Shown here: piece after piece, positions 87-59,206 of the stretch
Layout of the letters: each line of letters begins with the position of its first letter
Numbering within the stretch: position 1 is the first letter of the stretch
Assembly (NCBI RefSeq): GCF_004010195.1
Contig: NC_057719.1
Span: 49,054,723-49,113,928, forward strand
DNA: 59,206 nt
DNA from: Chiloscyllium plagiosum
Lineage: Eukaryota
Reading direction: 5' to 3'
Translations under genes and position numbers: made by a program
Notes under the pieces: model-generated
Database searches by the model: none
Seen by the model: only the letters and a program-made list of their open reading frames with translations
Told to the model about the DNA's origin: nothing

Positions 87-1220
87 CGATATCAGGGTTC
101 TTAGCAGAGGCAGTAATGCAGAGACTTGAACAAACAGCTCTGCCAATTATCTAACCCAAACTTTGGGTCCACTACATGGATGACACCTTTGTCATCACTA
201 AACGAAACAAATTAGAGGAAATCTTCAAGACCATCAATAATATCCTTATTGGCATAAAATTCACTAATGAGGAGGAAAACAACAACAAACTGCCATTCCT
301 AGATGTCACAGTAGAGCGAACAGCCAATGGGGAACTTCAAACTAGTGTCTTCAGGAATATGGATTAAATATTGAACTACAGAAGCAATCATCCCAACCCC
401 CACAAATGAAGCTGCATTAGAAAGTTACATCAATGAGCCACCACGCACTGCAGCACAGAGGAAGTACGCAAAGCAGAGGAAAATCACCTATACAGCGTAT
501 TCAAAAAGAATGGGTACCCAATGAACACAGTCCACCAATTTGTCAGCAACAAACCCAAACTAGCAGACAAAACCTGTCCAGAAACCGTAGCCATTCTCCC
601 CTACATCAAAGACATCTCGGAAATGACTGGCAGACTACTGAGACATCTTCGTATCATGGTAGCCCACAAACCCACCAACACTAAAACAGCAGCTAATGAA
701 CTTGAAAGACCCCATACAGACAACAAGCAAAATTAATGCCATTTACAAAACACCTTGCAAGAACTATAACAAACACTCCATTGGAAAAACAGGCAGAAAA
801 CTAGCCACCAGGAGACATGAACATCAACTAGCCACAAAATGACATGACCCACTCTCACTAGTTTCCTTACATACAGATGAGGAAGGATACCATTTTGACT
901 GTGAGAACACATCCATCCTACCGCAAGCTAAACAGTGATACGCACGAGAATTCCTAGAAGCATGGCATTCTAACCGGAACTCTATCAACAAACACATCGA
1001 CTTTTACCACCCGCTGGATCCCATTTACCACCCGCTGAGAAAAAGAACAGGAAATGACATCACCACATGAAATATCATCACAAACCCAAGGAAACATAAA
1101 CACATAAAGAGAAAGCGGGTCACTGGAGTGCTTCACTGGAGGCTCACTGATGACGTTACTTAGTGTGGTGACGAAATGTCTGAAAATGAACATTCCAGCT
1201 CAGCGAGCAAACTTACATAC
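87..1220 (+). mobile_element. Penelope-like retroelement, 5'-truncated: RT C-terminus, GIY-YIG endonuclease and 3' pLTR (decayed)
   Basis: Translation gives ISGFLAEAVMQRLEQ...LWVHYMDDTFVI (YxDD) and EEENNNKLPFLDV, then GIY-YIG-like AIYKTPCKNYNKHSIGKTGRKLATRRHEH and REFLEAWHS. Stops and frameshifts are present. It ends in a hammerhead-containing terminal repeat. Confidence 0.9.
1144..1183 (+). ncRNA. Minimal type I hammerhead ribozyme motif in PLE 3' pLTR
   Basis: TCA-CTGATGA(1147-1153)-C-GTTAC/loop/GTGAC-GAAA(1173-1176)-TG-TC(1179-1180)-TGA. Stem I is TCA/TGA; stem II has one G-U pair. Confidence 0.75.
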
Positions 1221-1221
1221 A

Positions 1222-1330
1222 CAGATGCAAAATACTCATTTAGTATCTCCCCCACCCCCTATGGTTTCACACATTGGTGGCCTTGCTGATCACTAAGGGG
1301 CCCTATTCTGTCCCTAGTTACCCTTCTGTA
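1222..1330 (-). mobile_element. CR1 LINE fragment
   Basis: Matches 7115-7215 (gatgcaaaatactc...gggccctattct...ccctagttaccc). Confidence 0.7.
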
Positions 1331-1531
1331 CTTAATTTGGAAGAGAATTTAGAGGTTGTGGTGTTCTCACATCTTTGCATCCTTTTAGATTGTAGTTATC
1401 ATGGGTTTAGAAGATGCTATCTAATGTGCTCAATGAATTTCTGCACTGGGTCTTACAGAGAGTACCCATTTAGCAATTATTTTGATCTTGAATAATTTGC
1501 TCTTACTCTGAGGCCAGTTTTCTCCTTTACA

Positions 1532-1657
1532 TGTTCATGGGATGTGGACATTGTTGGCATATCTCTAATTGCCATTCAATTAAACAGCTTGCTGTGCTAT
1601 TGCAGGGATTAGTTCCTAGTCAAGCACATTGTTATATGTTGAGAGTCGCAAGCAGAC
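1532..1657 (-). mobile_element. tRNA-derived SINE, 3' part (split by the LTR element; continues at 11291-11570)
   Basis: ttcatgggatgtggaca is the reverse of the LINE-like tail also seen at 36835-36860. The sequence joins across the CAGAC duplication to 11291 onward and resembles the reverse of 54900-54990. Confidence 0.55.
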
Positions 1658-1970
1658 TGTAGTGACTGTAATGAGGTCAGCCAGGTGGATTTCCTTGAAA
1701 GCTTCTCCATCTGTTCTGGAACATGTGTCCTCTCCCTCTCATCAAGCAGTGAAGATACCTCAGAGTCTGAGATGGACACAGCAGATGTCACTGTCTTGAT
1801 ACCTTTGTCACCCGAAGAAGAGAATGAGTTTTTACCAAGATGCTCCAGATGCAAGAGGTGAGCTAATATGCATTATACACCACCCATGTTGGAGACAGAG
1901 TTGGAGTAATCTGATCCAGTGCTAAAACACCTCAGTGGAAGCCACAAAAACAAAGAACAGATCTCTGTAT

Positions 1971-3850: not shown

Positions 3851-3914
3851 GTCCTTGAATAAAGAGAGCGGGGATGTAGTGATTGTAATGATCTCAGCCA
3901 GACTGACCCCATAG

Positions 3915-5325
3915 CCTTGGCTGGACTGAAACCCTATATCGGGGATTAAGCGTACAACATTGGCTCTGGCTTCTTATGAGAAACAGCTGGTTCAGTTCCC
4001 ACTGATTGTAGTAAAAAGCTCAGGCCCAAGCATGATGGGGCGAAATTGGTTGAGAAAGATTCAAATGTTGAGATTGGCAACATTTTTTGATTAGAAAATG
4101 GCTGCCTGAGTGAAGTCCTAATTAATACCCTGACGGTTTTCAGGAAGATCTATGGACTATCAAAGTAGACAAGGCCACTTTACATGTTGACCAGGAAACA
4201 ATTCCATGATACTGCAAGTTTTGCCCAGTGTCATTTGCCTTACAGGCAAAAGTAGAGACAGAAATCAGGAGATTGGAAAGCAAAGGAATCATCAAATTTG
4301 TACAATTTGCAGAAAAGGCAGCAGCACCGATCATAGCGATCGTGAGCCCAACAGGTCAGTTCGTTTTTGTAGGGATTTTAAACAAATGGTAAACTGCTTT
4401 TCACAGCTTGATAAATACTCAATCCCTTGCACAGAGGATTTATACGCAAAGCTGGCAGGGGGTCTGTCCTTTACGAAGCTGAACATGAATCATGCGTCTT
4501 TGCACTCGTGGTTAAATGAGGTTTCCCAGAAGTATGCTATAACTAACACCCACAAGGGACTGCCGTTTGGGGTGTCATCAGCCTGTGCAATTTTTCAGCA
4601 ATGAAGGGGAACACTTCACAAAATCTACTCCAGGTCACTATTCACCTAGATGACATGGGAAGGAAGATTTTTCGGTCAGTAAGTAAGTTCCACGAGTACC
4701 TTTATGGATGTACATTTGTAACAATAATAAACCACAAATCCTTGCTACATCCACTTAAAGCAAACAAGACAGTGCTGCCCATAGATTCAGGCCACATTCA
4801 GCAGTGGGCTTTAATATTAAATGCATTTAATTTCAAGTTGGAACACCATCCGGGAGACCAAGTAGCAGATGCGGACATATTGAGCTGTCTCCCACTGGCA
4901 GATAGACCACCAGTGGTGCTTCCCCTGGAAGAGTCAGCCATAGTTTTAAATTTTCGAGACACACTTCCAGTCACATCTGACAATATCAGACTTTGGAAGC
5001 AGAAAGATCCAGTTCTGGCAAAACTGAAATAGCTGGTGCTGATGGGAGAAACCAAAGGGCTATCTCAAACAGAATTGAAGTCTTTTTGGACTCGGAGAGA
5101 CCAGATCACAATAGAGGACAGCATATTATTATGGGGAGCAAGAGTGATTGTCCCGAGTAAAGATAACCGCCAGATACTGGCTGAACTCCACCACGGCCTT
5201 TCAGTGGTTTCCAAAATGGCAAGAAATTATATCTGGGGGCCAGGATTGGATGCAGACATAGCCACATTGGTGGGGCAGTGTCCAGAGTGCCAACAAAAAT
5301 AAAAATTTCCGCCAGCAGCTCACCA
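3915..5325 (+). pseudogene. Gypsy pol remnant: protease tail, RT, RNase H end and integrase HHCC zinc finger
   Basis: GPSMMGRNWL; DKYSIPCTEDLYAKLAGG..FTKL; LPFGVSSACAIFQ; IHLDD; FHEYLYGCTF; LAELHHG...ARNYIWGPGLDADI...CPECQ. Frameshifts and internal deletions are present. Confidence 0.9.
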
Positions 5326-7652: not shown

Positions 7653-7995
7653 NNNNNNNNNNNNNNNNNNNNNNNNNNNNNNNNNNNNNNNNNNNNNNNN
7701 NNNNNNNNNNNNNNNNNNNNNNNNNNNNNNNNNNNNNNNNNNNNNNNNNNNNNNNNNNNNNNNNNNNNNNNNNNNNNNNNNNNNNNNNNNNNNNNNNNNN
7801 NNNNNNNNNNNNNNNNNNNNNNNNNNNNNNNNNNNNNNNNNNNNNNNNNNNNNNNNNNNNNNNNNNNNNNNNNNNNNNNNNNNNNNNNNNNNNNNNNNNN
7901 NNNNNNNNNNNNNNNNNNNNNNNNNNNNNNNNNNNNNNNNNNNNNNNNNNNNNNNNNNNNNNNNNNNNNNNNNNNNNNNNNNNNNNNNNNNNNNN
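7653..7995. other. Assembly gap (343 N)
   Basis: Run of N within the CR1 endonuclease region. Confidence 1.
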
Positions 7996-8324
7996 CACTC
8001 CCCCTCCTCTCTTGCCTCCCTTTCTATCCTTCCTGTAGCATTTCTGTCGTAGAACATTAAGCTGCCAGTCCTGTCTATCCCTGAGCCATGTTTCTGTAAT
8101 TGCTATGATATCCCAGTCCCATGTTCCTAACTATGCCCTGAATTCATCTGCCTTCCCTGTTAGGCCCCTTGCATTGAAATAAATGCAGTTTAATTTATGA
8201 GTCTTACCTTGTTCTCTGATTTGTCCCTGCCTGCCCTCACTATTTCACTCGCTTCTGTTCTCAACTGTACCAGTCTCAGATTGATCTCTTTCCTCACTAT
8301 CTCACTGGGTCCCCCCCCACCTTA

Positions 8325-9243
8325 CTAGTTTATATCCTCCTGAGCAGCTCTAGCAAATCTTCCTGGCAGTACAGTGGTCCCCTTCCAATTTAGGTGCAAG
8401 CCGTCCTTCTTGTACAGCTCACTTCTACCCCAAAAGAGATTCCAATGATCCAAAAATGTAAATCCTTCTCCTGTACACCAGCTCCTCAGCCATTCATTCA
8501 TCTGCTTTATTCTCCTATTCCTGCCCTCATTAGCCTGTAGCACCAGGAGTAATCCAGATATTACTACTCTCGAGGGCTTCCTTTTTAAATTCCTGCTGAA
8601 CTCTTTGTAATCTCCCTTCAGAATCTCAACATTTTTCCTTCCTATGTCATTGGTTCTAATGTGAACAATGACCTCCTGCTGGTCCCTCTCCCCGTTAAGA
8701 ACACTCTCTAAGACATCCTTGATCCTGGCACCAGGGAAGCAACACATCATTCATGATTTTTCGCTACTGACCACAGAAACATCTGTCTGTACCTCAGACT
8801 AGAGAATCCCTGAACATAAACGTTCTCTTGGAATCCAACGTACCCCTCATTGCATTAGAGCCAGTCTCAATACCAGAAACTTGGCTGTTCGTGCTATGTT
8901 CCCTGAGATTTCGTCACCGCCTATGTTTTCCAAAACAACATACTTGTTAAAATGAGGGTAACCACAGAAGACTCTTGCGCTACCTGCCTACCTTTCTTAC
9001 CTTTCCTGGAGTTCCTATGTGACCATATCTGTGACTTTCCTCCTTCTTATAACTGCCATCCATCACATACCCTTGCACTTGTAAATTCCTCATTGCCTCT
9101 AACTATCTCACCAACCGATCCGTTCGATATGATAGGATTTGCAACCAAAGACATTTATTGCAGATATAATCTGCAGTAACACGTAAACTCTCCCTAAACT
9201 CTCACATCCGGAAAGAAGAGCATATCACTCTACTAAAGGCCAT
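8325..9243 (-). pseudogene. CR1 ORF1 remnant: Cys-rich N-terminus and SGNH/GDSL esterase-like domain
   Basis: Starts MAFSRVIC...DYICNKC; esterase blocks CFPGARIKDV, VIVHIRTNDIG and KKDGLHLN. Confidence 0.8.
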
Positions 9244-10600: not shown

Positions 10601-10865
10601 AAAGGTGCGGGAGAAAAATGCGTCTGGCTCTTTAACAGCCTCTACAACTGTTCCAGAACCTGTGGATTCGCCCTGTCCATCAAGCTGTGAAGATACCTTG
10701 AAATCAGAGTTGGACCCGGCCGATGTCATCGCCTCAATGCCTTTGCCACCTGATGGGAATGAATTTCTTCCAAGAAGCTTCAAGTGCAAGAGGTGAGCAT
10801 CTGTGCATTACATGCCACCTCTATCTGAGGCAGAGGTGGAGGAACTTGACCAGGTACAAAAATGC

Positions 10866-10983
10866 TAGGAGAAAGTGAGGACTGCAGATGCTGGGGATCA
10901 GAGCTTAAAAATGTGTTGCTGGAAAAGCGCTTTTAAAAATGTGTTGCTGGAAAAGTGCTTTTCCAGCAACACATTTTTAAGCG
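10866..10983. mobile_element. Short hairpin insert derived from a PLE pLTR tail, with 13-bp TSD
   Basis: GGTACAAAAATGC at 10853-10865 and 10984-10996; perfect 23-bp inverted repeat at 10933-10955/10958-10980; the arm matches 43199-43219. Confidence 0.85.
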
Positions 10984-11053
10984 GGTACAAAAATGCCCCA
11001 GGAAGAGCTACAACAAAAAAACAGCTTATGTCCTTGGACTCAGAATGGAGGGA

Positions 11054-14924: not shown

Positions 14925-16392
14925 ATTTGATTTGATTTATTGTAGTCATTTGTTCCTAAGTACAGTGAAATGTTTTGTTTTGCAAGCACTACCGGCACAT
15001 CATAACAAACAAGCACATACAGATGCTTAGGGCGAGGCATACAAGGTTACACTGCACAGGAGGTGTGCAATACAAGATCAACATTAGCAAGATCAACATT
15101 ATTTGTGCTTAGAGAGGTCCATTCAGTAGCATAATAACAACAGAAAAGAAAATGTTGTTGAATCTGTTGGTGCGTGTGTTCAAGTTTCTGTATCTTCTAC
15201 CTGATGGAAGAGGTTTAAAAAGAGCATTACTGGAGTGGGAGGGGTCTTTGGTGATGTTTGCAGCAATTCCACAGTAACAAGAACTGTAATGGTGTCCATG
15301 GTTGGGGCGGGGGGGCTTGGCCTCCACAATGTTCTGGGCTGAACACACAATTTTCTGTAGTTTCCTACGGTCCTAGGCAGAGCAATTGCCGTACCAGGCC
15401 GTTATGCACCTGGATAGAATGCTTTCTGTGATGCATCTGCAAAAGTTAATGAGATTCTTTATGGACATGCCGAATTTTCTAAGCTGCCTGAGAAAGAAGA
15501 AATCACACAACACCAGGTTATAGGCCAACAGGTTTATTTGGAAGTACTAGCTTTCAGACTGCTGCTCCTTTATCAGTTGCCTGGATTAGAAGTAGCACTT
15601 TGCAAGCTAGTGCTTCCAATTACACCCGTTGACTATAACCTGGTTTTGTGTGATTTTTAACTTTGTCCACCCTAGTCCAACACCAGCACCTCCACATCAT
15701 GACAAAGAGGAGTTATTGTTGTGCCTCCTTGACCGTCACATGTACGTGGGAAGTCCAGGGCAGATTGTTGGTTATTGCCACTCCTTGGAACTTGACGCTT
15801 TCAACCCTCTCCACCTCAGCTCCATTGATGTGGCTGGGACCATATCCTCCTCCTTTCTTCCTGAAGACAATGATCAGTTCTTTTGTTTTGCCAACATTGA
15901 GAGTTGTTCTCACTGCACCATTACACCAAGTATGCTATCTCCTTCCTGTATTCTGACTCATCATTGTTTGATATCCATCCAACCATGTGGTGTCGTCAAC
16001 AAACTTGTAGATGGCATTTGTATGGGATTTGGCTATACAGTCATGGATGTACAGGAAGTACAGCAGGGGGCTGAGAACGTATCCTTGTTGAGTATTATTG
16101 TGCAGAAGGTGCTGTTGTCTATCTTCACCAATTGTGGTCTGTGGGTCAGGAAGCTGAAGATCCAGTTGCAGTTTTGATATTAGTCTGGTAGGTTTTGAAG
16201 GTGGAGATGTAGTCGATGAATTGGAGGCTGACGTTGGTGTCCTTGTTGTCCAGATGTTCTAGGGATGAGAGTAGAGCTCAGGAAATGGCATCTGCTGTGG
16301 ACCTGTTATGTTGATAAGCAAATTGCAGGGGATTGAGGCAGGCTGGCAGGCTTGAGCTGATTTGGGCCATGACCAGCCTCTCAAAGTACTTT
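14925..16392 (-). mobile_element. Rex1/Babar-type LINE, RT 3' part
   Basis: LNVGKTKELIIVFRK...HINGAEVERVESVKF.GV and KDPSHS..LFKPLPSGRRYR...RTNRF; reversed (ATCAA)n-like tail at 14925-14940. Confidence 0.85.
15501..15703. mobile_element. Palindromic PLE-derived insert with head-to-head degenerate hammerheads
   Basis: Inverted arms aaatcacacaacaccaggttatag / ctataacctggttttgtgtgattt; imperfect TSD AAAGA(A/G)GA at 15493-15500 and 15704-15711. The minus strand of 15547-15579 reads CTGATAA-AGGAGCAGCAGTCT-GAAA-GC-TA. Confidence 0.75.
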
Positions 16393-21677: not shown

Positions 21678-21749
21678 GTCCCACTGTCTAGAACTTGGCA
21701 CACAGTCTTGAATGTTATGACATTTTCCAAGCATTTTTCAATTGCTTTC

Positions 21750-24102: not shown

Positions 24103-24138
24103 CTGTCAAAGCTTTTCACCTTGCACTTATCAGGACAG
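24103..24138 (-). ncRNA. Degenerate minimal hammerhead motif at the end of an unclassified repeat (about 24100-24460)
   Basis: Reverse complement reads CTGTC-CTGATAA-GTGCAAGGT-GAAA-AGCT-TT-GACAG: perfect 5-bp stem I, palindromic AAGCTT stem III, one core mismatch. Confidence 0.6.
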
Positions 24139-30093: not shown

Positions 30094-30099
30094 CTAAAG

Positions 30100-30270
30100 T
30101 GTTTTATAGGCAATGAAGTAATTTTGAGGTATAGTTACAAACTTAATTCAGAAACATGGCAACCAATCCCCACACAGAAACCACCCACAAATAAAATGTA
30201 TAATGGCTAAATAATCTGTTTTCAGTGATGTTGATTGAAAGTTAAAATGTAAATATTGGCCATATGAGCA
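30100..30270 (-). mobile_element. Deu-domain SINE (SacSINE1/AmnSINE1-like), 3' part
   Basis: gcaaccaat..cacacag..cccacaaa..ataatggctaaataatctgttttcagtgatgttgattga resembles the Deu domain as I recall it. Confidence 0.6.
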
Positions 30271-30949
30271 TATGGAGATGACTTAAATAAAATCAAACTA
30301 CAGTGGAAGCTGGATATCTGAAATAAAAAGAGAAACTCAACAGGTGTAGCAGCAACTGTGGGGAGAAGGAGAATTTCTGAGCTGAATCTTTTTTTTTTGG
30401 CTAAATGTCAATTTTGTTGTTTCTTTCCATGAATGCCAGCAAATTTCCATGTGCTATATTAATAACATTGCCTCATTAGCCACTTACCATGGCCATATGA
30501 TGCCCATCTTGTCCAATGCTAGCCATAGTCTATTAATCGTCGTAGTGGTAAGAACCCGTCACTGCCTGGATGTCCCAGAATGGACCATCCCTGTCACTGT
30601 GGCCATCTCTAAAAGGCTGTTGTGTACCTTGACAAGTACTGGCTATCTGGAGCTGCCCTGGACCTAGCAGGTAAAGAGAATTTGCCACTCCGTCTTTTGG
30701 GGGGAACCTGGAGACCCTGGTGGATGCACTGGGGCAGACAAGACATCTCCTCTTCCCCATGGACAGAGGAGGCCATGACACCACATTATGGCACCCTAGT
30801 ATGATGTTGCCACCTGGGTCAGTGCAGTCTCAACCACCTGGAGGACGGCCCAGTTAAAAAGAAAGTCAATGTCCTTCCCAGCTCTACTAGGATACGTGCT
30901 GCCACCTTCTCTCTGCTATATCACAGTCCCTCAATCTCTGCTACTGTAC

Positions 30950-31706: not shown

Positions 31707-31819
31707 CTAACAGAAATAGTGTCAAGATAGGAAGAAATAAGTTCAGTGTGGCACGAACAGTGTGGAAAGATGGGACTACCAGGCAACTCAATTTGTGGAT
31801 TTTTGGAAGAGGTAAAATG

Positions 31820-31985: not shown

Positions 31986-34184
31986 GCTATATCATGTGCA
32001 CCATGGCAGCATTTTAATTGTGCAAAATAGATTTTATATCTAAAAATATGACCAGTTACTATTGAATTTACAACCATTTCTGCCTGCAAAAGAATCCTGC
32101 TACATGAATCCTCTGGATTGTAATCTCTCTCACAGATTGGTGGTATGTAAATTAATGAGGTGACAATTTCCATAACTGGAAGGAAAGACACAGATTCTTT
32201 TGAAACAGAATACCTGCACAAACTATTTCCAAGATGAGATGGAATTATTTTGAAAACTGAACCACAGAAAAGATGGATCTCCACTGAAATATTCAGAGAT
32301 GTGTTCTAGCTGCATGCCTTAACACTTCAAAGTTAGTGTCCCTAAATCAGAAACTTCTTTTGTTCTCTGCCCCACTCCTGGCCCCAGATATCCAATTTTC
32401 AAGGTCAATAATTGGTAATTAATCTTTCAGCCACATAAGCTCTTACCTTATAGAATCCCTTCCCTAAACTCTATTCCTTGTTAATTTCTCCTCATGTTTA
32501 AAAACATTACGTAATTCTATCTTTCCAACCACATGTTGGGACACCTCCCTGACTTGATTCATTCTCCACTATGTGAAGCACTGAGAAATGGTTTATTATA
32601 TTAAATATGCTATACAAATTCAAGTGGCAGATTAACATGGCTTCTAGATAAGAGAGGAAAACAGACAAATAAAAAAAACTAAAGAGAAGATTTTAAGGAA
32701 TGCATTGCCAAACATTACACAGATTTTGAAGTAACGATATAAATATTGGTTTTAATTTGTAGGTCTTTACTGACATTATTTAGGAGTCAAAACATCAATT
32801 TACTTCACACTTATAGAATGGTGTTCAACATTCTAGCTTTTCCTTCATTGAAAGTAATGGTATTGCAGAGACTTGGATGAAAATTATGTCTGGTAAGAGC
32901 CGATGCCTTGCACTAGAGGAGAATATTGTGCTATTAGGTTAAATCAACAATTTATACTAATCCTTTTTTACACGGTTCCAAGTTTAACATGCTTACCTGC
33001 ATGAAGCATTGACCATCACAGGCATTGATTTACACTGTAATCATAATGTGTTTAATTTAGAAGGCAAATCCTTAAATAGATCAATAATCCATTACAGGTT
33101 AATTTGAAAATATGTATGGGCTACAATATGACTTTTCAACAATCATGCTTAAAGAGGTATACACGTATTTGTGTGCCCCACTCAGTGAAACTTGGCAGAC
33201 TTTTAGATAAATCAAATGCCTCACGGCAGGATGTTGAATTTGGTTAAACGTCAGAATAGTAATTTAACTTTTCAGAATTAAAGTTTGTTTCATTTAAATT
33301 CAGATGAAGATCCTTGGCCTGCTCTCCTGATTGATGTGAAGTTCACATCAAAGCCATTTAGAATGACTTTAAGACCAATATGAGAATTATCCGATATAGA
33401 TAATGGTGACACCTGGTTGTAGCCTATTAATAGGGACACAGAGAAACTAGAGCACAGAATGAGGACATTCATCTCAATGTGCCAGTTGAGGAAAAGAAAT
33501 TGCCCATTTTAGTCCCATCTTCCAGCACCTAGACCATAGCCTTGCAGATTAAACCATTTAAGGTGCAGGTACCTTTCAAGTGAGTTAGGGTTTCTGCTCC
33601 TCCACCAAACCAAATTCCATCACCCTCTTAGTGAAAAAGATTTTTCTTCTAATCTTTCTCCCAATCACCTTAAATTTGAGCCCCCGGTAACTGACCTCTC
33701 TGATGGGGAAGTAAATCTTTTATGTCTACCCTATTCAAGTTCCCTATAGTTTTATGCACCTCAGCTAAGCCACCCCTCAGTCTCCCCTATTCTGAGGAAA
33801 ACAATCCCAGCCTGAAACCAATGTTTTCTGATAGCTACAATTTTCAAGATCACAAGACAATAACATGAGCAGAAGTAGGCCATCCAACCCATCGAGGCTG
33901 CTCCACCATTCAGTGCGGGATCATGGCTGATCTGACATTCCTGTCATTTCCCAAATAACCCTCAATTCCTTTACTGATCATAAGAATCTCTCTCAGCTTT
34001 GAATATACTTAATGAGCCATCCCCGACAGTCATCTGCAGTAAAGAATTCCACATATTCAATACCATTTGTGAAAAGGAATTCCTCCTCATCCCTTTTAAG
34101 TGTGTGACCCCTATTCGGAGACTAAGCCTTCTGCTCCGAGACTGTCCCACACGGGAAATAATAAATGCACTCCTAACCCGTCAA

Positions 34185-34282
34185 TATTCCTGACGAAGAG
34201 CTTAATGCTCGAAAGGTCAGCTGTCCTGCTCCTCAGATGCTGCCTGACCAGTTGTGCTTTTCCCGCACCACACTTTTTATCT
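34185..34282 (+). mobile_element. 98-bp PLE-derived insert with intact hammerhead core and 6-bp TSD
   Basis: CGTCAA at 34179-34184 and 34283-34288; CTGACGA(34190-34196)-A-GAGC-TTAAT-GCTC-GAAA(34211-34214)-GG-TC. Confidence 0.8.
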
Positions 34283-36184
34283 CGTCAAGTCCCCTATGAA
34301 TCCTGCATGTTTCAATAAGATCACCTCTCATTCTTCTAAGTTCCAAGTACAGGCCTAACTTACATAACTTTACTTCCTACAACAGTTCCTTCACAAGTAG
34401 TAGCAGCCTAGTGAGCTTTCTATGGCTTCCAATTCCAGTATAACTGTCCTTTGATAAGGGGGCCCAAAACTGTTCACAGCATTCCAACTGTGAGTCTGAC
34501 TCATGCATTGTATAGTTTTAGCAAAACCTCTACTTTTATACTCCAATCCTTTTGAAATAAAGGCCGATATTCCATTTGCCTTCCCTATTACCCACTGAAC
34601 TTGGATTCTGGCAAGTTTCTTGTAAATCTTTATACATGCTCCACAGAAATTATGTCCATCCTGTAATGTGATGATTATAACTGTGCACAAAATTCCAGCT
34701 GTGACTTATCAACTGTTTTAGACACTTTCAACATTATATCCCTGCTTTTGTATTCTATACCTTATCCAATAAAGGATTACCTACCTGTCCCATTACCTTT
34801 AGAGACCTGTGTACATGCACTCCAAAATTCTCTTCCTCTATGGCTTTCAATATCCTCCTGCTAATTGTGTATTTCCTCGATTTGTTTGCCCTCCCCAAAT
34901 GCACTTCCTCACACTTCTCCTGGTTAAGTTCCATTTGCCCTTCTCCACCTGAACCAAATATAATTGAGTAGACAGCAATCTTCCTTACTAATAACCATCC
35001 CACAATTTGTATGCTATCTACAATTTCCCAATCCTGCCTCTCACATTTATGTCCAAATCATTAATATATAGAATAATCAACAAGTGACCCAACACTGAGC
35101 CTTGAGGAACACCACTGGGAACCACTTTTTGTTTACAAAAGCATCCGTTACCTTTAGTTTTCTGTTGCTGTGCCAGTTTTGGATTCAAATTATCCATTCC
35201 ATAGGCTTTTACTTTAGTGATCAGTCTGCATGTGGGATCTTGTCAAGTGCCTTAGTAAAATCTATGTAGAGACAACATCCTTTGAACTACACCTCGAAGT
35301 GTTCCAATAAGCTAATAAAACATAACTTTGTCGAATAAAACTCTGTTGATTTTAATTGATTAATACTTGCCTTTCTAAATAATGATTTATTCTGTTTCTC
35401 AGAATTGATTCCAGTAGTTTGCTATCTGGCCTATAATTAATTGACCTAGGTCTTGCACCAACTTTAAACCAAATGTTCAAAGACTTCCAATCCTCTGATG
35501 TCTCACCTTAAACTAGTGAGGATTGGCAATGATCCCCAGGGCATCTGTTATTTTTTTCCTTGATTTCCTCTAACAAGGAAAGGTAACCAGGGATACAAAT
35601 CATCTGGTCCTGGCAATTTATCCACTTCAACTGGTCCTCATTATCAGTCTTAAACATGTGACCCTTTACTCCGAGATTATGCCCTCTGGTCAAGAAGAAA
35701 CAACCTCTCCACACCTACACTGTCAATGCTCCTAATAATTTTATATGTTTCAAAAAAGTCACCTTTCATTCTTCTAAACTCTAATGAGTACAAGTCCAAG
35801 CCACTTAATCTTTCCTCATAAGAAAATCTCTCCATTCCAAGAATCAATCGAGTGAACTTTCTCTAGACTGATTCTTTCAGCACTTCTATCCTTCAATAAG
35901 GGGACAAAAACTGTCCCCAGGATTCCAGCTGTAGTCTGAGCAGTGCTTTGTATAGTTTTAGCTGTACTCCTTACTTTTATACCCTATTTCTTTGGAAATG
36001 AAAACCATCCAACAGTCTATTTGCCTTTCTTATTATCTGCTAAACTTGTATGTTCGTTTCTTGTGATTTATACACAAATACCTCTCAGATTCTTCCATTC
36101 TACAGCTTTCTGCGGTCTTGCAGGAAATGTTCAGCTCTTCTATTGTTCCTGTCAAAATGTATGTCCTCACATTTTCTCACATTA

Positions 36185-40570: not shown

Positions 40571-43133
40571 GATTAATGTCCTCTATCATGAACTGACACA
40601 AAAAATTGATTCAATTCCTTTGCCATTTCCAAGGTCTCATTCTGTAAGTAGCCTAAGAAGCTTTTGTATCTGTTTTTATATTACTTGCTAATTTACCTTC
40701 ATACTTTATTTCCTTCCCCTCATTTTTTTTTTGTTATCTTTTGTTGAGTTTTCAAACCTTTCCAAAGCTCTCATTTGCCACTACTTTTTGCCACATTGTA
40801 TGTTTTTCCTTTGAAGTTGATACAATCCTTAACTTTGTTCATTAACCACGGTTAGTTTATCGCCAACCTAGAATCATTTTTCCTCATTGGGATATATCTT
40901 TGCACTGAGTCATGAACCAGTTACTTAAATGTCTACCATTGTTTGTCAACTGCCTTTCGATTAAACACTTTTCACAATGCACCGCAGCCAACTCAGCCCT
41001 CATCCCTACATAATTACCCTTATTTTGTCTTGAATCATCCATCTCCTTTTTGAAGACAGAGACAAAGTTCACAGTAAGAACCTTGTCCACATTTTCACTA
41101 CTCACACACATTACCATGTACATCTCTGATAGGCCTTACCCTTTCCTTAGTTATACTCTTGCTCTCAACGCACTGTTAAAATATTTCTGCGTTTTCATTT
41201 ACTTTAGAGTCATAGAGATGTACAGCACAGAAACAGACCTTCCGGTCCAACCCGTCCATGCCGACCAGATATCCCAACCCAATCTAGTCTCACCTGCCAG
41301 CACCCGGCCCATATCCCTTCAAATCCTTCCTATTCAAATAACCATCCAGATGCCTTTTAAATATTGCAATTGTACGAGCCTCCACCACTTCCTCTGGCAG
41401 CTCATTTCATACATGTACCACCTTCTGCGTGAAAAAAAGTTGGCCCTCAGGTCTCTTTTATTTCTTTCCCCTCTCACCCTAAACCTATGCCCTCTAGTTC
41501 TGGACTCCCCAACCCCAGGGAAGAGACTTTGTCTATTTATCCTAACCATGACCCTCATGATTTTAAAAATCTCTATAAGGAGACCCCTCAGCCTTCGACA
41601 CTCCAGGGAAAATAGCCCCAGCCTGTTCTGCCTCTCCCTGTAGCTCAGATCCTCCAACCCTGGCAACATTCTTGTAAATCTTTTCTAAACCCTTCCTAAT
41701 TTCAAAACATCCTAGAAAGGAGACCAGAATTGCATACGATTTTCCAAAATTGGCCTAACCGATATCCTGTACAGCCACAACATGGCCTTCCAACTCCTGT
41801 ACTCAATACTCTGACTAATAAAGAAAAGCATACCAAATGCCTTCTTCATTATCCTATCTACCTGCGACTCCACTTTCAATGAGCTATGAACCTGCACTCC
41901 AAGTTTGTTTGCTTTGTTCAGTGACACTCCCTTGGACCTTGCCATTAAGTGTGTAAATCCTGCTAAGATTTGCTTTCCCAAAATGCAGCACCTCACACTT
42001 ATTTAAATTAAACTCCATCTGCCACTTCTCAGCCCACTGGCCCATCTGATCAAGATCCCTTTGTAATCGCTGTCCACTACACCTCCAATTTCAGTGTCAT
42101 CTGCAAACTTACTAACTATCTTCTTATGCTCACATCCAAATCATTTACATAAATGATGAAAATTAGTGGACCTAGCACTGATCCTTATGGCACTCCAATG
42201 GTCACAGGCCTCCAGTCAGAAAAACAACCTTTCACTACCCTCTGTCTTCTACCTTTGAGCCAGTTCTGTATCCAAATGACAAGTTTTACTTGTATTCCAT
42301 GATATCTAACCTTGCTAACCGGTCTCCCATGGGGAACCTTGTCGAACATCTTACAGAAGTCCATATATCTCATGTCCACCGCTCTGCCCTCATCAATCCT
42401 CTTTGTTACTTCTTCAAAAAACTCAATCAAGTTTGTGAGACATGATTTCCCAATACATGTACACCCTGTCCCTCAGGATTCCCTCCAACAACTTGCCCAC
42501 CGCCGACCTCAGGAACACTGGTCTATAGTTCCCTGGCTTGACTTTACCGCCCTTCTTAAACAGTGGCACCACGTTTGCCAACCTCTAGTCTTCCGGCACC
42601 TCACCTGTCACTATCGATGATACAAATATCTCAGCAAGAGGCTCAGCAATCACTTCTCTAGCTTCCCACAGAGTTCTAGGGTACACCTGATCAGGCCCTG
42701 GGGATTTATCCACTTTTTCAAGACATCCAGCACTTCCTCCTCTGTAATATGGACATTTTTCAAAATGTCACCATCTATTTTCCTACATTCTATATCTTCC
42801 ATGTCCTTTTCCACAGTAAACACTGATGCAAAATGCTCATTCAGTATCTCCCCCATCTCCTGCGGTTCCACACAAAGGTAGCCTTGCTGATCTTTGAGGG
42901 GCTCTATTCTCTCACTACTTATCCTTTTGTCCTTAATGTATTTCTAAAAATCCTTTGGATTCTCCTTAACTCTATCTGCCAAAGCTGTCTTATGTCCCCT
43001 TTTTGCCCTCCTGATTTCCCTCTTAAGTATACTCTTACTTCCTTTATACTCTTCTAAGGATTCATTTGATCTATCCTGTCTATGCCTGACATATGCTTCC
43101 TTCTTTTTCTTAACCAAACCCTTAATTTCTTTC

Positions 43134-43222
43134 CTGAGGAAGAGCTTATGCCCGCAACGTTGATTCTCCCATTCCCTGGATGCTGCCTGACCTGCTGCGC
43201 TTTTCCAGCAACACATTTTCAG
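43134..43222 (+). mobile_element. 89-bp PLE-derived insert beginning at a hammerhead core, 14-bp TSD
   Basis: CCTTAATTTCTTTC at 43120-43133 and 43223-43236; CTGAGGA-A-GAGC-TTAT-GCCC-GCAA-CG-TT-GATT (GAAA mutated to GCAA). Confidence 0.85.
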
Positions 43223-43307
43223 CCTTAATTTCTTTCATCACCCAGCGTCCCTAGCCTACCAGCCTTTCCTTTCACCCTAACATGAATATACTGTTTCTGG
43301 ACTTTCA

Positions 43308-46322: not shown

Positions 46323-46390
46323 AACAACATAATTTATTCAAGCTAAATATATGTCTCCAGTTCTATGAGGCTAAGTTTTGTTAACCCGTC

Positions 46391-46703: not shown

Positions 46704-46799
46704 TGATGTGATACTTTGTCAAGATTCATATTGATAACTTCCATTGCAGTAGCTTTAATCTTGAGTTCATCGAAATATTTCATTAGATTAGTCAAACCA

Positions 46800-47017
46800 A
46801 ATAAAACCAAAAGAACTGTGTAAGCTATAAATCAGAAACAAAACAGAAATTGCCTGAAAAGCTGAGCAGGTCTTGCAGTATCTGTGAGGAGAAATCAGAG
46901 TTAATGTTTCTGGTCCATTTCTGAGGAAGGGTCACCAGACCCGAAACATCAACTCATATTTCTCTTCACAGATGCTGCCAGACCTGCTCAGCTTTTCCAT
47001 CAATTTTGGTTTTGTTC
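46800..47017. mobile_element. Palindromic PLE-derived insert with intact hammerhead core and 9-bp TSD
   Basis: GTCAAACCA at 46791-46799 and 47018-47026; inverted arms at about 46835-46916 and 46938-47017; CTGAGGA(46921-46927)-A-GGGTC-ACCA-GACCC-GAAA(46943-46946)-CA-TC. Confidence 0.85.
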
Positions 47018-47309
47018 GTCAAACCACATGTTGTGTTTCAAGAAGGGCAACAAGCCAATGTGTTTAACAACAGCAGGAAGTTTCTTTAAGGAGATATTCT
47101 CTCTGCAAGGCAGCAAGCTAAACTGAACTGTTTCAGCCAATGACAGCTTCGCTATGTCACATGATCAGACACAATTTGACAGTCCAACTTACTTAAATAA
47201 ATATACACTGCAAGATCAGCCTTTACAAAACTGTTTCCCTCCTTTACTCATTTTGCGACTGCTCATAACACGTTCCTGTGCTTTTTTTGTATTGTTTTGT
47301 TTTTACTTG

Positions 47310-49600
47310 TTAATGAGATGTGGGCATCACCTGCAAGTACAGCATTCATTGCCTATCCCTAATGATCCTGCAGAAGATGGTTACTGGCTTCCTTCCTAAG
47401 CCAGTACAGTCTTTGAGGTGGTCATACACCCACAGTGCCGACCGGGAGGGAATTCCAGCATTTTGACCCAGTGTTCCTGAAAGAGCAGTGATACAATTCC
47501 AAGTGAGAATGGTGTGTGGCGTGGAGGGACGCTTGTATCTGCAGACCTTGTAATTTTAAGTGGTAGAGGTCACAGGTACGAAAGGAACTGAGGAAGTCCA
47601 GGTGAGTTTCTCCACTTCGTCCTATAGACAGTACACACAGTTAGTATTGTGTGTCAGTGGTGGAAGGAGTTTAAATTGGCAAATGGATTGTAAATCCTGC
47701 TTTGTCCAGGATGGTGTTGATATTCTTGAGTGTTGCCAGAGATGCAATCATTTTGATGAGCAGACAATATTCCATCACACTTTGATTTGCCCTTTGTAGA
47801 TGGTGGACAGGTTTTTGGGTGTCAAGAGGTGGGTTGCTTATTACTCCTGACCTGTTCTACAGCCTTAGTATTAATCTGGCTGGTCTAGTTCAGTTTTTCA
47901 TCAATGGAGGTCCCATAATTTGCTGGTGAAGGATACAGCAATGCTAATGTCATTAGTTTGACACACTGCCTGGCACCTGTGAGGTGCAAATGTTATTTTC
48001 TATCTATCAGACTGAGACTGAACCTTGGATATGGAACATTTCAGTCTCTGAGGATTTTACTCTTCAGTGAACATCCCCACTTTTGAACTTATGATAAAGG
48101 CAAGATGAAACAGTTGAAGATTATAAGTCTTCAGATACTACCCTAAGGAAATCCAAGGAAATCCTGCAGAGATGTATTAACACTGAAATGACTGGCCTCC
48201 AACAACCACAATCATCTTGTCTTGTGCTGATATGACACCAAGCTGTGGAGAGTTTTCCTTCTGATTCCCATTGACTGTAGTTTTGCTAGGGCTTCTTGAT
48301 ACCATACTGGCTGTCTTGATGTTAAGGGAAGTCAATTGGTTTGGTGGTGAACATCTTGGGTTCAGCTCTTCTGTCCATGTTTGGATCAAGGCTGTCAAAA
48401 GATCAGAAGCTGAGTGGCTCTGGTGGTTCACAATCTGAACATAAGTGAGCAAATTATTACTGAGTAAGTGGTATTTGATAGCATTGTTGAGGGTCTTGAA
48501 AAGCTAACTTTTTCTCTCTTCAATGATGCTCCAAGACCTGTTGATTTCTCCAGCATTTTCTGTTTTTATTTCAGATCTCCAGCATTCATAATACATTGCT
48601 ATTATTAGGTAAATCTATGGCTACTTCTGGAGAACAAGTCTTCAATACCATTGCCAAAATGCTCCCTGTGACTCTAGGCTTTGCAGTATCTAGAGTCTTC
48701 CGCTGTGTCTTGGTATTATAGAGTGAATTGAAGATTGCCATCATGTGGTGCTGAGACTCAGAGGTTTGATCATCCAGTCAGCACTTCTGACAGTAGATGG
48801 TTGCAAATTCTTTGGCCTTTTCTTTTAAACTATCCTCTAAGCTCACCCATCATTGAGGATAGGGATGTTTGTGGAGCCGTCCCCATCTCTGGTTAGTTCA
48901 TGACATGATATGGCAGAACTGCAAGGGTAGGATCTGATCTATTGGTTTGGGGATCAGCTAGCTCTTTCTGTTTCATGCTGCCTCTGCCATTTGCAGCAGT
49001 TCTGTCTTGTAGCTTTCCAGGTGGACTCCACATTTTTAGGTATAGCTGGTGCTCCTTTTGATATGCCTTCCTGTAAACTCCATTTAATCAGTGTTGGTCT
49101 CCTGGCTTGATGGCAATGATAGAGTGATGGATATACTGGGTCAGGAGATTGCATATTGTAGTTGAATACCACTTTTGCTGCTACTGAAGGCCCACAATGC
49201 CAAATGGATGCCCCAGTTTGAGTCTTTAGATCTGTTTGAAATCTATCCCATTCAGAATGAAGAATCTGCTCAAAGTGAAGATGTGACTGTTGCCACAAGA
49301 ATTGTGTGATGGTCACTCCTCCTGAAAAAGTCTTTATAGATGTATTAGCAAGAGCTAGATTATTGAGGATGAGCTGCAGACCCAGTGTAGCAGTTATCTC
49401 TTTTAGCACTTGGCCAGTGAATGTGCTGAGAACCACTCTTCATGATGGACATCAAATTTCCTCAGAGTACATTCTGTGCTCTTGTTAGCTTCAAAGCTTC
49501 TTCCAATTGGTGTTTGATGTGAAGGAGTTCATCAGCTGAAGGCTGAGGGGTTGTGAGGGATGATAATCAGCAGGAGGTTTTCAAACCTTGGCCTGCCACT
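47310..49600 (-). mobile_element. Old CR1/L2-group LINE, same group as 36185-36865
   Basis: Reversed 3' end at 47310-47400; HSASDLLTALIQTWTEELN and VVVGGQS motifs; heavily decayed. Confidence 0.7.
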
Positions 49601-54879: not shown

Positions 54880-55240
54880 ATCACTAAAAAAAACACTTGG
54901 TTCACTGATATTGAAGAGAACCAGCTACTCTTACCTGGTCTGGCCTACATGTGACTCCAGAAACACAGCAATGTAGTTGACTCTTAATTGCACTTTTAAG
55001 TGACCTGTCAAGATACTTGATTATTCAAACCCACTATGTAAAGGAATAATAAAATTACAATTGGGAGTATCAACATCACACAAAGAATTTATCTGGTCAT
55101 TACCACCTTACTGTATGTTGCAGTTTGCTGAGCACAAATTAGTTATCGCATTTCTTACATTGACTAAAAAAAAGTACTACGTTGACTATAAAATGCTTTG
55201 AGATATCAGCTGGCTAAGGGAAAATGTAAGTCTTTTTATT
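54880..55240 (+). mobile_element. SINE fragments (tRNA-SINE body, then Deu-domain 3' part)
   Basis: ttacctggtctggcctacatgtgactccaga..cacagcaatgt, followed by atctggtcatta..ca..t.ctgt.tg..g.agtttgctg.gcacaaatt. Confidence 0.55.
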
Positions 55241-57439: not shown

Positions 57440-58140
57440 GAGGATTTATCCCTAAGTTAATTGAAAAAAAATCAAAGGATAGGTTAATTGCATGAGAAAA
57501 ATTGCAATTAAAAACAGGGGCTAAGTAAGATGTCATAACTGAGGCGATATCATTTGAAAGTGAAAAATGAAAAGTTAATTCAGAAAGCAATGTTAGTTTC
57601 ATCTACAAATGAAATAACTTGAAATGGATAAAGAAATTAAGCAAAATAAAAATGGAAGGAATTGTGAATGCTGTAAATCAGAAACAAAAATAGAAGTTGC
57701 TGGTAAAGCTCAGCAGATCTGGCAGCATCTGTGAAGAGAAATCAGAGTTAATGTTTTGCGTCCAGTGACCCTCCCCCAGAAGGGCATTTCTTCACAGGTG
57801 CTGCCAGACCTGCTGAGCTTTTCCAGCAACTTCTCTTTTTGTTTGTGTAAAAAATGAAACCTCTTGAATTAAAAAAAGAAATTAAAAACTAAAATACAAA
57901 AGAGAAATGCAAGAGCTTGAACTTGAGATCCGAGAGAGAAGTCAGCAAGGGAAAAAAAGGGATAAACATGGGGAGTTTCAAAAGGAAAGATAAATTAAAC
58001 AGCATGATCTGATTAAATGAGAAGTTAGGTTATATGGTTGTTCCAATCCATAGTATAGAGAATAAACATGATGTTAAGAAACTAGTATGCTTTCATTGTC
58101 ATACAACAGGTATATAAAAGCAAGTTATTGGACATGGAAG
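57440..58140 (+). mobile_element. Decayed Gypsy-like gag fragment
   Basis: Glu/Lys-rich coiled-coil-like REMQELELEIRER followed by the knuckle-like CFHCHTTG at about 58088. Confidence 0.45.
57660..57847. mobile_element. Palindromic PLE-derived insert (family of 46800-47017), hammerhead degenerate
   Basis: gaagttgctggtaaagctcagcagatctggcagcatctgtgaaga is inverted against tcttcacaggtgctgccagacctgctgagcttttccagcaacttc. The minus strand reads CTGGGGG-AGGGTC-ACTG-GACGC-AAAA. Confidence 0.8.
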
Positions 58141-58162
58141 GTGGCAGGGTGAAGGGAAAGGT

Positions 58163-58288
58163 TGGTGTAATGGTAATATCACTGGACTAGTAATCTAGAA
58201 TCAGGCTAATGACCTGCGAATTAAGGTTCAAGTCCTACCAGGGTGGATGGTGAAATAAAAGCTTGCCTAACAGTTATCATATAACTGC
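58163..58288 (+). mobile_element. tRNA-derived SINE 5' head, truncated by PLE insertion
   Basis: A-box-like tggtgtaatgg and B-box-like ggttcaagtcc. Confidence 0.65.
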
Positions 58289-59206
58289 TGGATTCTGGAT
58301 TAGTGGTGCTGGAAGAGCACAGCAGTTCAGGCAGCATCCAAGGAGCAGTAAAATCGACGTTTCGGGCAAACGCCCTTCATCAGGAATAAAGGCAGAGAGC
58401 CTGAAGGGTGGAGAGATAAGCTAGAGGAGGGTGGGGGTGGGGAGAAAGTAGCATAGAGTACAATAGGTGAGTGGGGGAGGGGATGAAGGTGATAGGTCAA
58501 TCGCCTCCGCCTCCAAGCTTACTTTCACAATCAGGACTCCCACCCATCTTCCGAGGACCCCTTCGCCCACCTCCAACACACTGCGTCCACCTAAACACCA
58601 CCGCGCTGGCCTATTACCTGCCCTCGACCTCTTCAGTTCCAACTGCTGCCGGGACATTAACCGCCACAACCTGTCTACCCCCCTCCCCCACTCCAACCTC
58701 TCACCCTCACAACACGCAGCCCTCCAATCCCTCTGCTCCATTCCCAACCTCACCATCAAGCCAGCAGATAAAGGGGGGTGCAGTGGTAGTCTGGCGCACT
58801 GACCTCTACACCGCTGAAGCCAAACGACAACTCGAGGACACCTCTTCCTACTGCCCCCTCGACCATGACCCCACCCCCCATCCCCAAACCATCTTTTCTC
58901 AGGATATCTCCCACCCACAGCTTCCAACCTCATAGTCCGGGAACCCCGCACTGCCCGGTTCTACCTCCTTCCCAAGATCCACAAGTCTGACCACCCTGGC
59001 CGACCCATTGTCTCAGCATGCTCCTGCCCCACTGAACTCATCTCTACCTACCTCGACACGGTCCTATCCCCCCTAGTCCAGGAACTCCCCACATACGTTC
59101 GAGACACCACCCACGCCCTCCACCTCCTCCAAGACTTCAGTTTGCCCGGTCCCCAACGCCTCATCTTCACCATGGATATCCAATCCCTCTACACCACCAT
59201 CCGCCA
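58289..59206 (+). mobile_element. Young Penelope-like element: inverted 5' pLTR (58289-58498) then RT N-terminal half, running off the window
   Basis: NLTIKPADKGG.VVV (PLE DKG motif), PRTARFYLLPKIHK..HPGRPIVS and IFTMDIQSLYT; CpG-rich with a few frameshifts. Confidence 0.92.
58352..58387 (-). ncRNA. Minimal type I hammerhead ribozyme with intact core
   Basis: Reverse complement reads ATTC-CTGATGA-A-GGGC-GTTT-GCCC-GAAA-CG-TC-GATT; predicted cleavage between 58356 and 58355; palindromic ACGT stem III. Confidence 0.85.

Follow-up and report, generated by a model that had tools for sequence, protein, structure and literature searches.

The window analysed here, a stretch of 59,206 nucleotides from Chiloscyllium plagiosum, holds minimal hammerhead ribozyme motifs close to or within fragments of Penelope elements (PLEs), raising the question of whether these motifs mark a system of short elements that propagate on their own, by way of working ribozymes, or the remains of longer elements. 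We consider it probable, at about 70%, that they are pieces of the ends of five or more PLE types, truncated, dead-on-arrival products of the RT and endonuclease of their parents, with the hammerhead decaying.

Hammerhead motifs, their cores and their relatives

Each of the eight motifs listed in the preliminary description is present in the sequence, with cores starting (position C3) at 1147(+), 15576(-), 24133(-), 34190(+), 43134(+), 46921(+), 57779(-) and 58383(-), while the positions first given for the minus-strand motifs turn out to be motif 3' ends, not cores. This amounts to one site per 7.4 kb of the window, decayed copies counted, and the motifs separate into five sequence types (A to E), as had been estimated, types A (34190, 43134, 58383) and B (46921, 57779) having a downstream segment of about 33 bp in common. 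The CUGANGA and GAAA boxes ascribed to all eight are found at 1147, 34190, 46921 and 58383, for which both the intact cores and the stem II pairings that had been claimed are confirmed, and not at the other four, which carry one to three core changes each (G8>A at 15576 and at 24133; A13>C at 43134; A6>G, A9>G and G12>A at 57779). An extra base follows A9 in seven of the motifs, 24133 being the exception. Helix III is self-complementary in five, one of them by wobble (AUGU, at 1147), and has lost this property at 34190 (AGGU, the first helix I pair being lost as well), 46921 (ACAU) and 57779.

Boxes this short may match by chance, and the evidence for such a reading of all eight motifs is that some are weak. 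A strict descriptor is passed only by 58383(-), and nearly by 1147 (one observed versus a mean of 0.06 in 200 block-wise dinucleotide shuffles). With a relaxed score, four sites reach at least 7, versus 0.025 per shuffle (40 shuffles, maximum 1), nine reach at least 5, versus 1.6, and eleven reach at least 4, versus 6.8, counts close enough to the shuffles that the score by itself does not lift 15576, 24133 and 43134 above chance; 57779 exceeds the mismatch limit of the scorer, and an Rfam scan that allowed E values of up to 10 returned no hammerhead family among its eight matches. Chance as the source of all eight is nevertheless hardly credible, as four sites score far above shuffles, the weak motifs are homologous to strong ones or sited in PLE-type inserts, and relatives keep the position, strand and pairing of the motif; for types A, B and E a chance origin is already excluded. 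Judged from sequence, the case for the motifs at 43134 and 57779 is their homology to stronger copies, and for that at 15576 it is the inverted arm, tail and TSD of its insert. The least supported site is 24133, with a helix I of 5 bp, a palindrome of 6 nt and a single copy in the window. Four other relaxed-score matches (37282, 18931, 14638 and 46463) were rejected, being within shuffle range and with PLE context not found.

The relatives in question come from marine metagenomes, where the same motif is placed after the ORF, in sense. Of 25 loci with the ORF C-terminus present and at least 375 nt beyond it, 14 match the core in sense versus four in antisense. Thirteen of the 14 sense loci, picked on the core only (an identical locus was dropped and two probable chance matches were kept), have 43 of 52 helix I cells paired versus a shuffle mean of 27.4, and 42 of 52 stem II cells versus 31.3; none of 10,000 column shuffles matched the observed pairing of helix I, and none that of stem II, a count that is not to be read as a probability, since the sequences are related. 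In 11 of the 13, CG or TG occupies positions 15.2-16.2. Given the covarying stems and the placement of the motif behind the ORF in these relatives, the hammerhead structure is, by all signs, under selection in active elements.

Parental elements and the anatomy of short inserts

PLE coding remnants occur at each end of the window. One is the broken 3' part of an ORF (86..1055, + strand) encoding the RT C-terminus, thumb and GIY-YIG endonuclease, with stops and a frameshift and with the linker zinc finger absent, sharing 80% identity with Stegostoma protein P0113 along 202 aa and 42% with the C-terminus of the full-length P0117 along 114 aa. The C-terminal GIY-YIG and the lack of a CX2-5CxxC linker identify the predicted product as Penelope/Poseidon-type. 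About 90 bp downstream, in the 3' pLTR, is the type E motif (1144..1183, +; C3 1147, H17 1180), with an intact core, a 6-pair stem II and a 3-pair helix I. The other remnant is a 5'-truncated, frameshifted Neptune-like ORF (58500..59206, +; N-terminal and RT part), at whose 5' junction an inverted type A pLTR arm (58285..58500, -; C3 58383, H17 58356), antisense to the ORF, carries the only fully intact motif of the window (4-pair stem II, ACGU palindrome, helix I with three of four pairs). The best protein match of this ORF (P0001) is 96% identical, Chiloscyllium punctatum P0002, and its full-length relatives P0015 and P0019 have RT and GIY-YIG domains with a CX4CxxC linker. The ORF itself stops short of the linker region, and relatives at 61-65% identity carry CX2-5CxxC, a linker common to Nematis as well as to Neptune. 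A Pfam scan of 26 long frames detected retroelement domains only and no host gene. Core anatomy and ORF neighbours thus support the earlier assignment of the motifs to minimal type I hammerheads of PLE pLTRs, the location next to an RT and GIY-YIG element being direct for types E and A, and indirect for type B (through the 3' segment common with A) and type C (through its tail and inverted arm), with no such link seen for type D. Identity between the short type A copies and the ORF-linked one is only 76-81%, so that the parents of the former are not seen.

The proposed insert size of 90-220 bp holds for five of the eight motifs (89-218 bp); two others adjoin the ORF remnants, and one, the type D variant hammerhead (24103..24138, -; C3 24133, H17 24108), with a 5-pair helix I, a 2-pair stem II and the palindrome AAGCUU, belongs to an element without definable ends. 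TSDs are well defined in four of the five short inserts, and head-to-head arms with a one-sided tail in three. The two type A inserts are simple: 34185..34282 (+; C3 34190, H17 34218) starts 5 bases before the core and has a 6-bp TSD (34179-34184 and 34283-34288), and 43134..43222 (+) starts at the core (0 to -3, its TSD overlapping helix I), with a 14-bp TSD (43120-43133 and 43223-43236). One head-to-head insert, of type C (15498..15699), has a one-sided tail and a 9-bp TSD with one mismatch (15489-15497 and 15700-15708), and contains, along with its minus-strand motif (C3 15576, H17 15548), a ninth, plus-strand motif in a more decayed state (about 15580-15612); where two motifs occur in one insert, they are on opposite strands. 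Another, of type B (46800..47017; C3 46921, H17 46950; 9-bp TSD, 46791-46799 and 47018-47026), has an inverted arm, with the tail, ending inside stem II and a direct arm beginning 2-5 bases upstream of the core, the arms being 85% complementary over 79 nt. In the third, also of type B (57645..57849; C3 57779, H17 57750), the long arm, on the minus strand, starts 2 bases before the decayed core with its three changes, the short arm begins past the cut site, the arms are 92% complementary over 59 nt, and the TSD is weak (A-rich). Two elements were absent from the preliminary description, a hammerhead-less fold-back insert with a type A 3' end and tail (10866..10983; 13-bp TSD, 10853-10865 and 10984-10996) and a type B-like 3' end with tail but without hammerhead core (48505..48610, +). 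In total, TSDs measure 6-14 bp and are clear at 10866, 34185, 43134 and 46800.

This anatomy is the pattern published for EN+ PLE insertions, namely 5' truncation, an inverted pLTR arm, a one-sided tail of 30-40 bp and a TSD (Arkhipova, 2013, PMC3846280; Craig, 2021, PMC8557442), and insertion by PLE machinery, as proposed earlier, is the most likely explanation of the TSDs, head-to-head arms and one-sided tails. In sequencing-run contigs, pLTR ends are about 30-fold deeper than the ORF. Pattern scans for the 3' segment common to types A and B gave no matches in viral contigs and none in metagenome contigs, and 67 matches in prokaryote genomes were dismissed as chance, with no extension past 44 bp.

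The copies in the window look like decaying stubs. Arms that were identical when inserted now differ by 8-23%, a divergence predicting 0.2-0.6 intact 12-nt cores, versus four observed among eight sites, and several breaks coincide with CpG sites in the ACGUCG stretch; a hammerhead conserved in the parents appears to decay by drift after insertion. In MFE folds of whole inserts, which do not model dimers, stem II survives in 1147 and 46921, the cut-site side pairs with the inverted arm in 46921 and 57779, and the inverted arm of 15576 pairs with the entire motif. Minimal hammerhead monomers are published as non-cleaving (for dimers see Lunse et al., RNA Biology, through the review PMC6765202), and single genomic copies would not be working ribozymes, the parental motif presumably cleaving only as a dimer or with protein. 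The early suggestion of very many such ribozymes in this genome therefore stands as to motif abundance and not as to working ribozymes, at most two of the eight copies having all the needed features.

The 5' edge and the origin of the short copies

Among nine motif-bearing arms, five clear ones (34185, 43134, 46917, 57781, 15579) and one decayed (15580) start at most 5 bases upstream of C3, two extend further (by about 117 and over 1000 bases) and that of 24133 is undefined; the arms of short copies thus mostly begin ahead of the core and not at the cut site. Summed contig depth drops across this edge by 67% and 69% (two runs, two species labels), a drop that is confounded by subfamilies with different upstream sequence. 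Loose contig ends pile at 58387, 4 bases before C3, where their consensus is near-random (agreement 0.32-0.33), RNA loose ends at the same position show a partial consensus (0.47), and type B contigs extend 7 or more bases upstream of the core. This shared edge could bear on the role of the PLE hammerhead and on the origin of inverted pLTRs, and stubs with a fixed end would help to locate the start of the template RNA and to learn if the cut site is put to use at all.

The RT of the Anolis Poseidon uses uncleaved RNA and initiates internally, at the tail, which lies downstream of the hammerhead (PMC11167929). Were the shark elements copied in the same manner, and were their transcripts to start in the upstream pLTR just before helix I, the priming site would be only 90-130 nt from the RNA 5' end, so that many reactions would run off this end and insert a hammerhead-headed stub, and end-to-end joining of two run-off cDNAs, each belonging to a different nicked target strand, would produce the fold-back inserts. 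We give this route even odds. An initiator-like YYANWYY at -6..0 is present in two of eight window copies and fits the type A edge, but it is found in none of 13 relatives and remains a lead only. Since the start site of Drosophila virilis Penelope is 46 + 75 nt upstream, its intron 3' end meeting helix I (PMC2377424; PMC4209133), a start at helix I is not general; among the relatives, alignable inverted arms overrun the edge, by about 46 nt in L073 and about 490 nt in L105, and in L068 a direct 5' pLTR extends 118 nt beyond it. A bolder version, in which the uncleaved hammerhead would serve as a 5' module of the template RNA, with transcripts that start at helix I, pair as dimers through ACGU and are copied by a dimeric RT at both nicked target strands, from tail to 5' end, giving head-to-head stubs, is speculative and distinctly improbable. 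If true, the shark stubs, in their hundreds of thousands, would amount to a natural archive of PLE reverse transcription, and the PLE hammerhead, long unexplained, would gain a non-cutting role.

The edge may instead be a point of processing or stalling, either a helix I splice acceptor or a template switch made by the RT as it leaves the folded or dimeric hammerhead. An AG two bases before the core is seen in type B loose contig ends, with one window arm starting directly after it, in D. virilis helix I is where the intron ends (PMC4209133), and the 46921 junction is compatible with 4-nt microhomology. For type A, however, the nearest upstream AG is about 17 bases before the core, off the edge, most type B contigs contain the AG and continue past it, and an RT would be expected to stall as it meets a structure and not once it is through, making this account rather unlikely. 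The short units may also be self-propagating, SINE- or MITE-like families with an internal Pol II promoter at the front edge of the hammerhead, re-copied in trans by PLE proteins, an unlikely alternative despite the 5' edge common to types A, B and C, the TSDs, the depth of the ends, the difference between short and ORF-linked A copies, the internal promoter known in Penelope (PMC2377424) and the sufficiency of pLTRs for mobilisation in trans (PMC3846280). Fold-back junctions differ from copy to copy (46921 versus 57779), hammerhead-less stubs with the same ends exist (10866, 48505), and RNA reads on both strands without end pile-up are what passive read-through of dispersed copies would give, the library being ill-suited to the question. 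The label of non-autonomous families, in the sense of self-propagating ones, is not borne out, as 5' ends that vary, together with tails and inverted arms, resemble truncated products of full-length PLEs. In the two single-cell RNA runs under the same species label, 3398 reads matched in one (mostly from other copies) and none in the other; none fell on the unique flank 57933-58154, the strands were represented by 979 versus 700 reads in the bin 58303-58339, and no end pile-ups were seen in one poly(A) run, of a library type that cannot show 5'-OH ends.

A retrozyme-like system, as originally envisaged, in which tandem hammerhead repeats self-cleave, circularise and re-insert, we regard as very improbable. 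Non-LTR retrozymes, proposed to derive from pLTRs, are reported from one chondrichthyan (bioRxiv 10.64898/2026.07.22.740005), and dispersed monomers of such families are known in Xenopus. In the window, however, the hammerhead unit appears in none of 15 TRF rows, and with no motif in a tandem repeat the label lacks its defining feature. Self-BLAST of the window revealed only dispersed or inverted copies, and the closest motifs of the same type and strand are at least 8.9 kb apart. The motifs are minimal, not canonical, the inserts begin before the core where cleaved monomers would begin after H17, and one-sided tails and inverted arms are features of PLEs. Among the joints listed for the RNA run (a single-cell poly(A) library), none was a back-joint.

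Relation to published PLE hammerheads

The class is already described, from fishes, coelacanth and frog, and from one chondrichthyan in a 2026 preprint (Li, Clavereau and Pollet, bioRxiv 10.64898/2026.07.22.740005); our literature search found no paper on PLE hammerheads of sharks, and the supplement file of PMC4209133 that was searched contains no shark names. The non-LTR retrozymes of that preprint and of Cervera (2020, PMC7229834) are alike in being non-coding, in their type I hammerhead and in their proposed PLE dependence, but by definition they are tandem repeats, two or more consecutive units of which each contain a complete hammerhead, and they make circular RNA, none of which is seen here. 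In Poseidon PAc of Anolis carolinensis (Frangieh, 2024, PMC11167929), similarly, the pLTR hammerhead is slightly upstream of the tail and no RNA reads end at the cut site; the case for PAc, unlike ours, is backed by biochemistry, its ORF starts within the hammerhead, and the portion of that report used here mentions no fixed 5' end of short copies. EN+ PLE insertions (PMC3846280; PMC8557442) have in common with ours the head-to-head arms, the one-sided tail and the inverted arm at the ORF 5' junction, as at 58285-58500. Their TSDs are about 8-10 bp, and they differ in that whole insertions here are 89-218 bp without an ORF and, by contig depth, roughly 30-fold more frequent than ORF-bearing parts.

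The closest match is with the minimal hammerheads of metazoan PLE pLTRs (Cervera and de la Peña, 2014, PMC4209133), which have the same core boxes, the extra base between positions 9 and 10.1, G10.1-C11.1, a palindromic 15.2-16.2 and a short helix I, and which occur as several families per genome, mostly as single motifs tied to truncated PLEs, with close pairs on opposite strands; the pile-up of 5' ends at helix I seen here is not mentioned in the part of that paper drawn on. The window adds shark examples to this class, on record since 2014, and their density (one per 7.4 kb) is far above the published descriptor counts of other vertebrates, about 4,000 hits per genome in coelacanth and about 9,000 in Xenopus, counts that are not like for like. 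One lamprey row in the supplement of the same paper is identical in layout to the 1147 motif.

Hammerhead motifs and their carriers

All eight hammerhead sites claimed in the preliminary description are present in the window, with cores starting, in standard numbering, at 1147(+), 15576(-), 24133(-), 34190(+), 43134(+), 46921(+), 57779(-) and 58383(-); the four intact cores are also borne out, while the other four carry one to three catalytic-box changes. The observation as a whole is partly confirmed. By sequence the motifs fall into types A (34190, 43134, 58383), B (46921, 57779), C (15576), D (24133) and E (1147). With a strict descriptor, 58383 is the only match in the window (0.06 per shuffle, 200 shuffles). 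Under a relaxed score, four sites reached 7 or above where shuffles averaged 0.025, nine reached 5 or above (shuffle mean 1.6) and 11 reached 4 or above (shuffle mean 6.8; 40 shuffles); the top four sites are therefore real by statistics, and the remaining motifs rest on homology or context. Type D (24103-24138, minus strand) is the weakest, being present in one copy with a two-pair stem II, yet it has a five-pair helix I and a six-nucleotide palindrome; its layout, in which the extra base after A9 is absent, is unusual. An Rfam search of the window returned no matching model for the hammerhead motifs. In the decayed type B core, two A>G changes lie three bases apart (57773-57776, minus strand), the arms of this insert being otherwise 92% complementary, and could reflect either chance or template editing.

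The 1147 motif lies on the sense strand, about 90 bp 3' of a broken RT-GIY-YIG ORF without the linker zinc finger, and its carrier is classed, by the criterion in PMC8557442, as a 3' end of the Penelope/Poseidon type of Penelope-like elements (PLEs). The arm that holds the 58383 motif (58285-58500) is inverted and abuts an ORF of opposite strand that is truncated at its 5' end and which we class as Neptune-like judging from the domains of its full-length relatives (RT, CX4CxxC linker and GIY-YIG) rather than from a tree. Short inserts hold five of the motifs: 34185-34282 and 43134-43222, with target-site duplications (TSDs) of 6 and 14 bp, and three head-to-head fold-backs, each tailed on one arm only, at 46800-47017 (TSD of 9 bp), 15498-15699 (9 bp, one mismatch) and about 57645-57849 (weak TSD). 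Stubs that have the same ends as these carriers but no hammerhead lie at 10866-10983, 48505-48610 and about 30270-30345. The first is a fold-back built from the type A end, with three arms of 25-30 bp, a tail and a 13-bp TSD. The 10866-10983 fold-back also attracts spurious Rfam microRNA-precursor matches, under gathering scores. Inverted pseudo-LTR (pLTR), tail and TSD form the published PLE pattern (PMC3846280 and PMC8557442).

Types A and B share, despite their different hammerheads, a downstream segment of about 33 bp at 79-94% identity (43179-43212, 46969-47003, 57795-57830, 58307-58338), a candidate protein-binding or priming element. Their tails (10866-10905, minus strand, and 48570-48610, plus strand) end in a pyrimidine run with AG after it or close by, resembling a 3' splice site, with a possible bearing on intron retention in PLEs; the type C tail, unlike these, ends in CATCATG.

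For contigs from two runs of DNA type, which carry two species labels, the summed depth on the type A end was 6.5-8.5 million, with about 8-14 for the unique flank and about 0.2-0.3 million for the ORF; this is contig depth and not a copy number, and it suggests only an order of magnitude, 10^5 to 10^6 ends, with about 30 per ORF piece. The window density, one site per 7.4 kb, is consistent with that order.

Pairing in relatives and decay of inserted copies

From metagenome contigs, 80 loci of the Neptune-like clade were retrieved, and the relaxed score found a motif in 23 of them (26 matches). Circularity was avoided by searching core letters alone in the 25 loci where the ORF C-terminus is present and followed by 375 nt or more; after the C-terminus, a core was found in sense in 14 of these and in antisense in four. 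Pairing was counted in 13 of the 14 sense loci, L081 being left out as identical to L073 and two probable chance matches being retained. Helix I was paired in 43 of 52 cells (shuffle mean 27.4) and stem II in 42 of 52 (shuffle mean 31.3), with several pair types at each position. This pairing, which is a count over loci some of which are close kin and not a probability, supports a selected structure. Two of the relatives, L084 (1-340 and 3783-3954) and L092 (1-330 and 3481-4122), have tandem repeats of roughly 120 and 245 bp in pLTR regions near the hammerhead.

The window's copies differ from these relatives in their behaviour. The arms of the inserts, identical at insertion, have now diverged by 8-23%, from which 0.2-0.6 intact cores are expected; four of eight are observed. 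Nothing points to selection on the inserted copies, though a set of eight offers little power.

The shared 5' edge and its possible origin

Most short copies share a start just upstream of C3, the core start, in front of helix I. Five of the nine core-bearing arms (34185, 43134, 46917, 57781, 15579) begin at most five bases upstream of C3, and a sixth, a decayed inverted type C arm whose alignment is certain only from stem II on, probably starts at the same edge; two others extend far upstream and one is undefined. If stops are assumed to fall uniformly, at 0.006-0.03 per base, the chance of six in nine is 2e-7 to 1e-3 and that of five in eight 3e-6 to 5e-3, for a six-base window picked after seeing the data and for arms that are not independent within one insert. 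Contig depth drops 67-69% across the edge, subfamilies with other upstream sequence contributing, and loose contig ends with near-random consensus accumulate at 58387. No arm begins exactly after H17, the cut-site position, and the 5' end is therefore not determined by cleavage.

In Anolis Poseidon, according to PMC11167929, the RT initiates internally, at the tail of the RNA, favours RNA that is uncleaved and is predicted to be a dimer, both target strands are nicked and extended, and the hammerhead cleaves only with the protein. Given such initiation, the 5' end of a transcript that begins in the upstream pLTR lies close to a priming site; the shark stubs would be run-off copies from this site, and the fold-backs may be two such cDNAs joined. 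Counting against run-off, Penelope of D. virilis has its start 121 nt upstream and an intron ending at helix I (PMC2377424 and PMC4209133), none of 13 relatives has an initiator-like sequence at the 5' edge, and none of the three paired arms alignable in relatives stops there. The one RNA run that gave reads, a kind of data unsuited to testing the edge, had them on both strands and without any piling up of ends. A more novel reading, to which we give about one chance in eight, makes the hammerhead itself the part of the template RNA that forms its 5' end and mediates pairing.

About 155 RNA reads (run X21) that come from a single other locus enter the antisense type B tail (57645-57690) and continue into poly(A) beyond 57690, roughly 40 bases past an AATAAA in that tail, reflecting either a stub-donated poly(A) site or internal priming where the sequence is A-rich.

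Known systems and genomic setting

PLE hammerhead motifs of this kind have been known since Cervera and de la Pena (2014; PMC4209133), and the window adds a new member. That study describes these motifs and their families, mostly single and tied to truncated PLEs, reports motif pairs on opposite strands, and found monomers inactive and dimers weak. Retrozymes, as described in PMC7229834 and a 2026 preprint (bioRxiv 10.64898/2026.07.22.740005), have complete hammerheads in tandemly repeated units and give rise to circles; the preprint includes one chondrichthyan and reports cleavage in one of nine dimers tested. The window differs in lacking this tandem arrangement, none of its 15 TRF rows containing a hammerhead unit, and the proposed retrozyme-like system is not supported on that point. 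The earlier interpretation as a whole is partly supported. Our literature search, whose reach excluded most subscription papers and repeat databases, did not find a paper on shark PLE hammerheads or on a 5' pile-up; closed supplements may cover the topic.

The window has a G+C content of 40% and is full of decayed retroelements. The frame at 58932-59204, of 91 residues, has its best match in a Chiloscyllium punctatum protein (96% identity), followed by Mobula, Stegostoma and Heterodontus matches, and the one at 155-364 shares 83% identity with a protein of Stegostoma. These matches make the source a shark, probably of the bamboo sharks or closely related to them. An old Neptune-like ORF relic at 31719-31817 (minus strand), with no hammerhead found nearby, is 72% identical to 58959-59059. 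Other remnants are an RT RNase H-like domain of LTR-retrotransposon type at 4191-5032 (plus strand) and a GDSL/SGNH esterase frame at 8325-8750 (minus strand), of a type known from CR1 ORF1.
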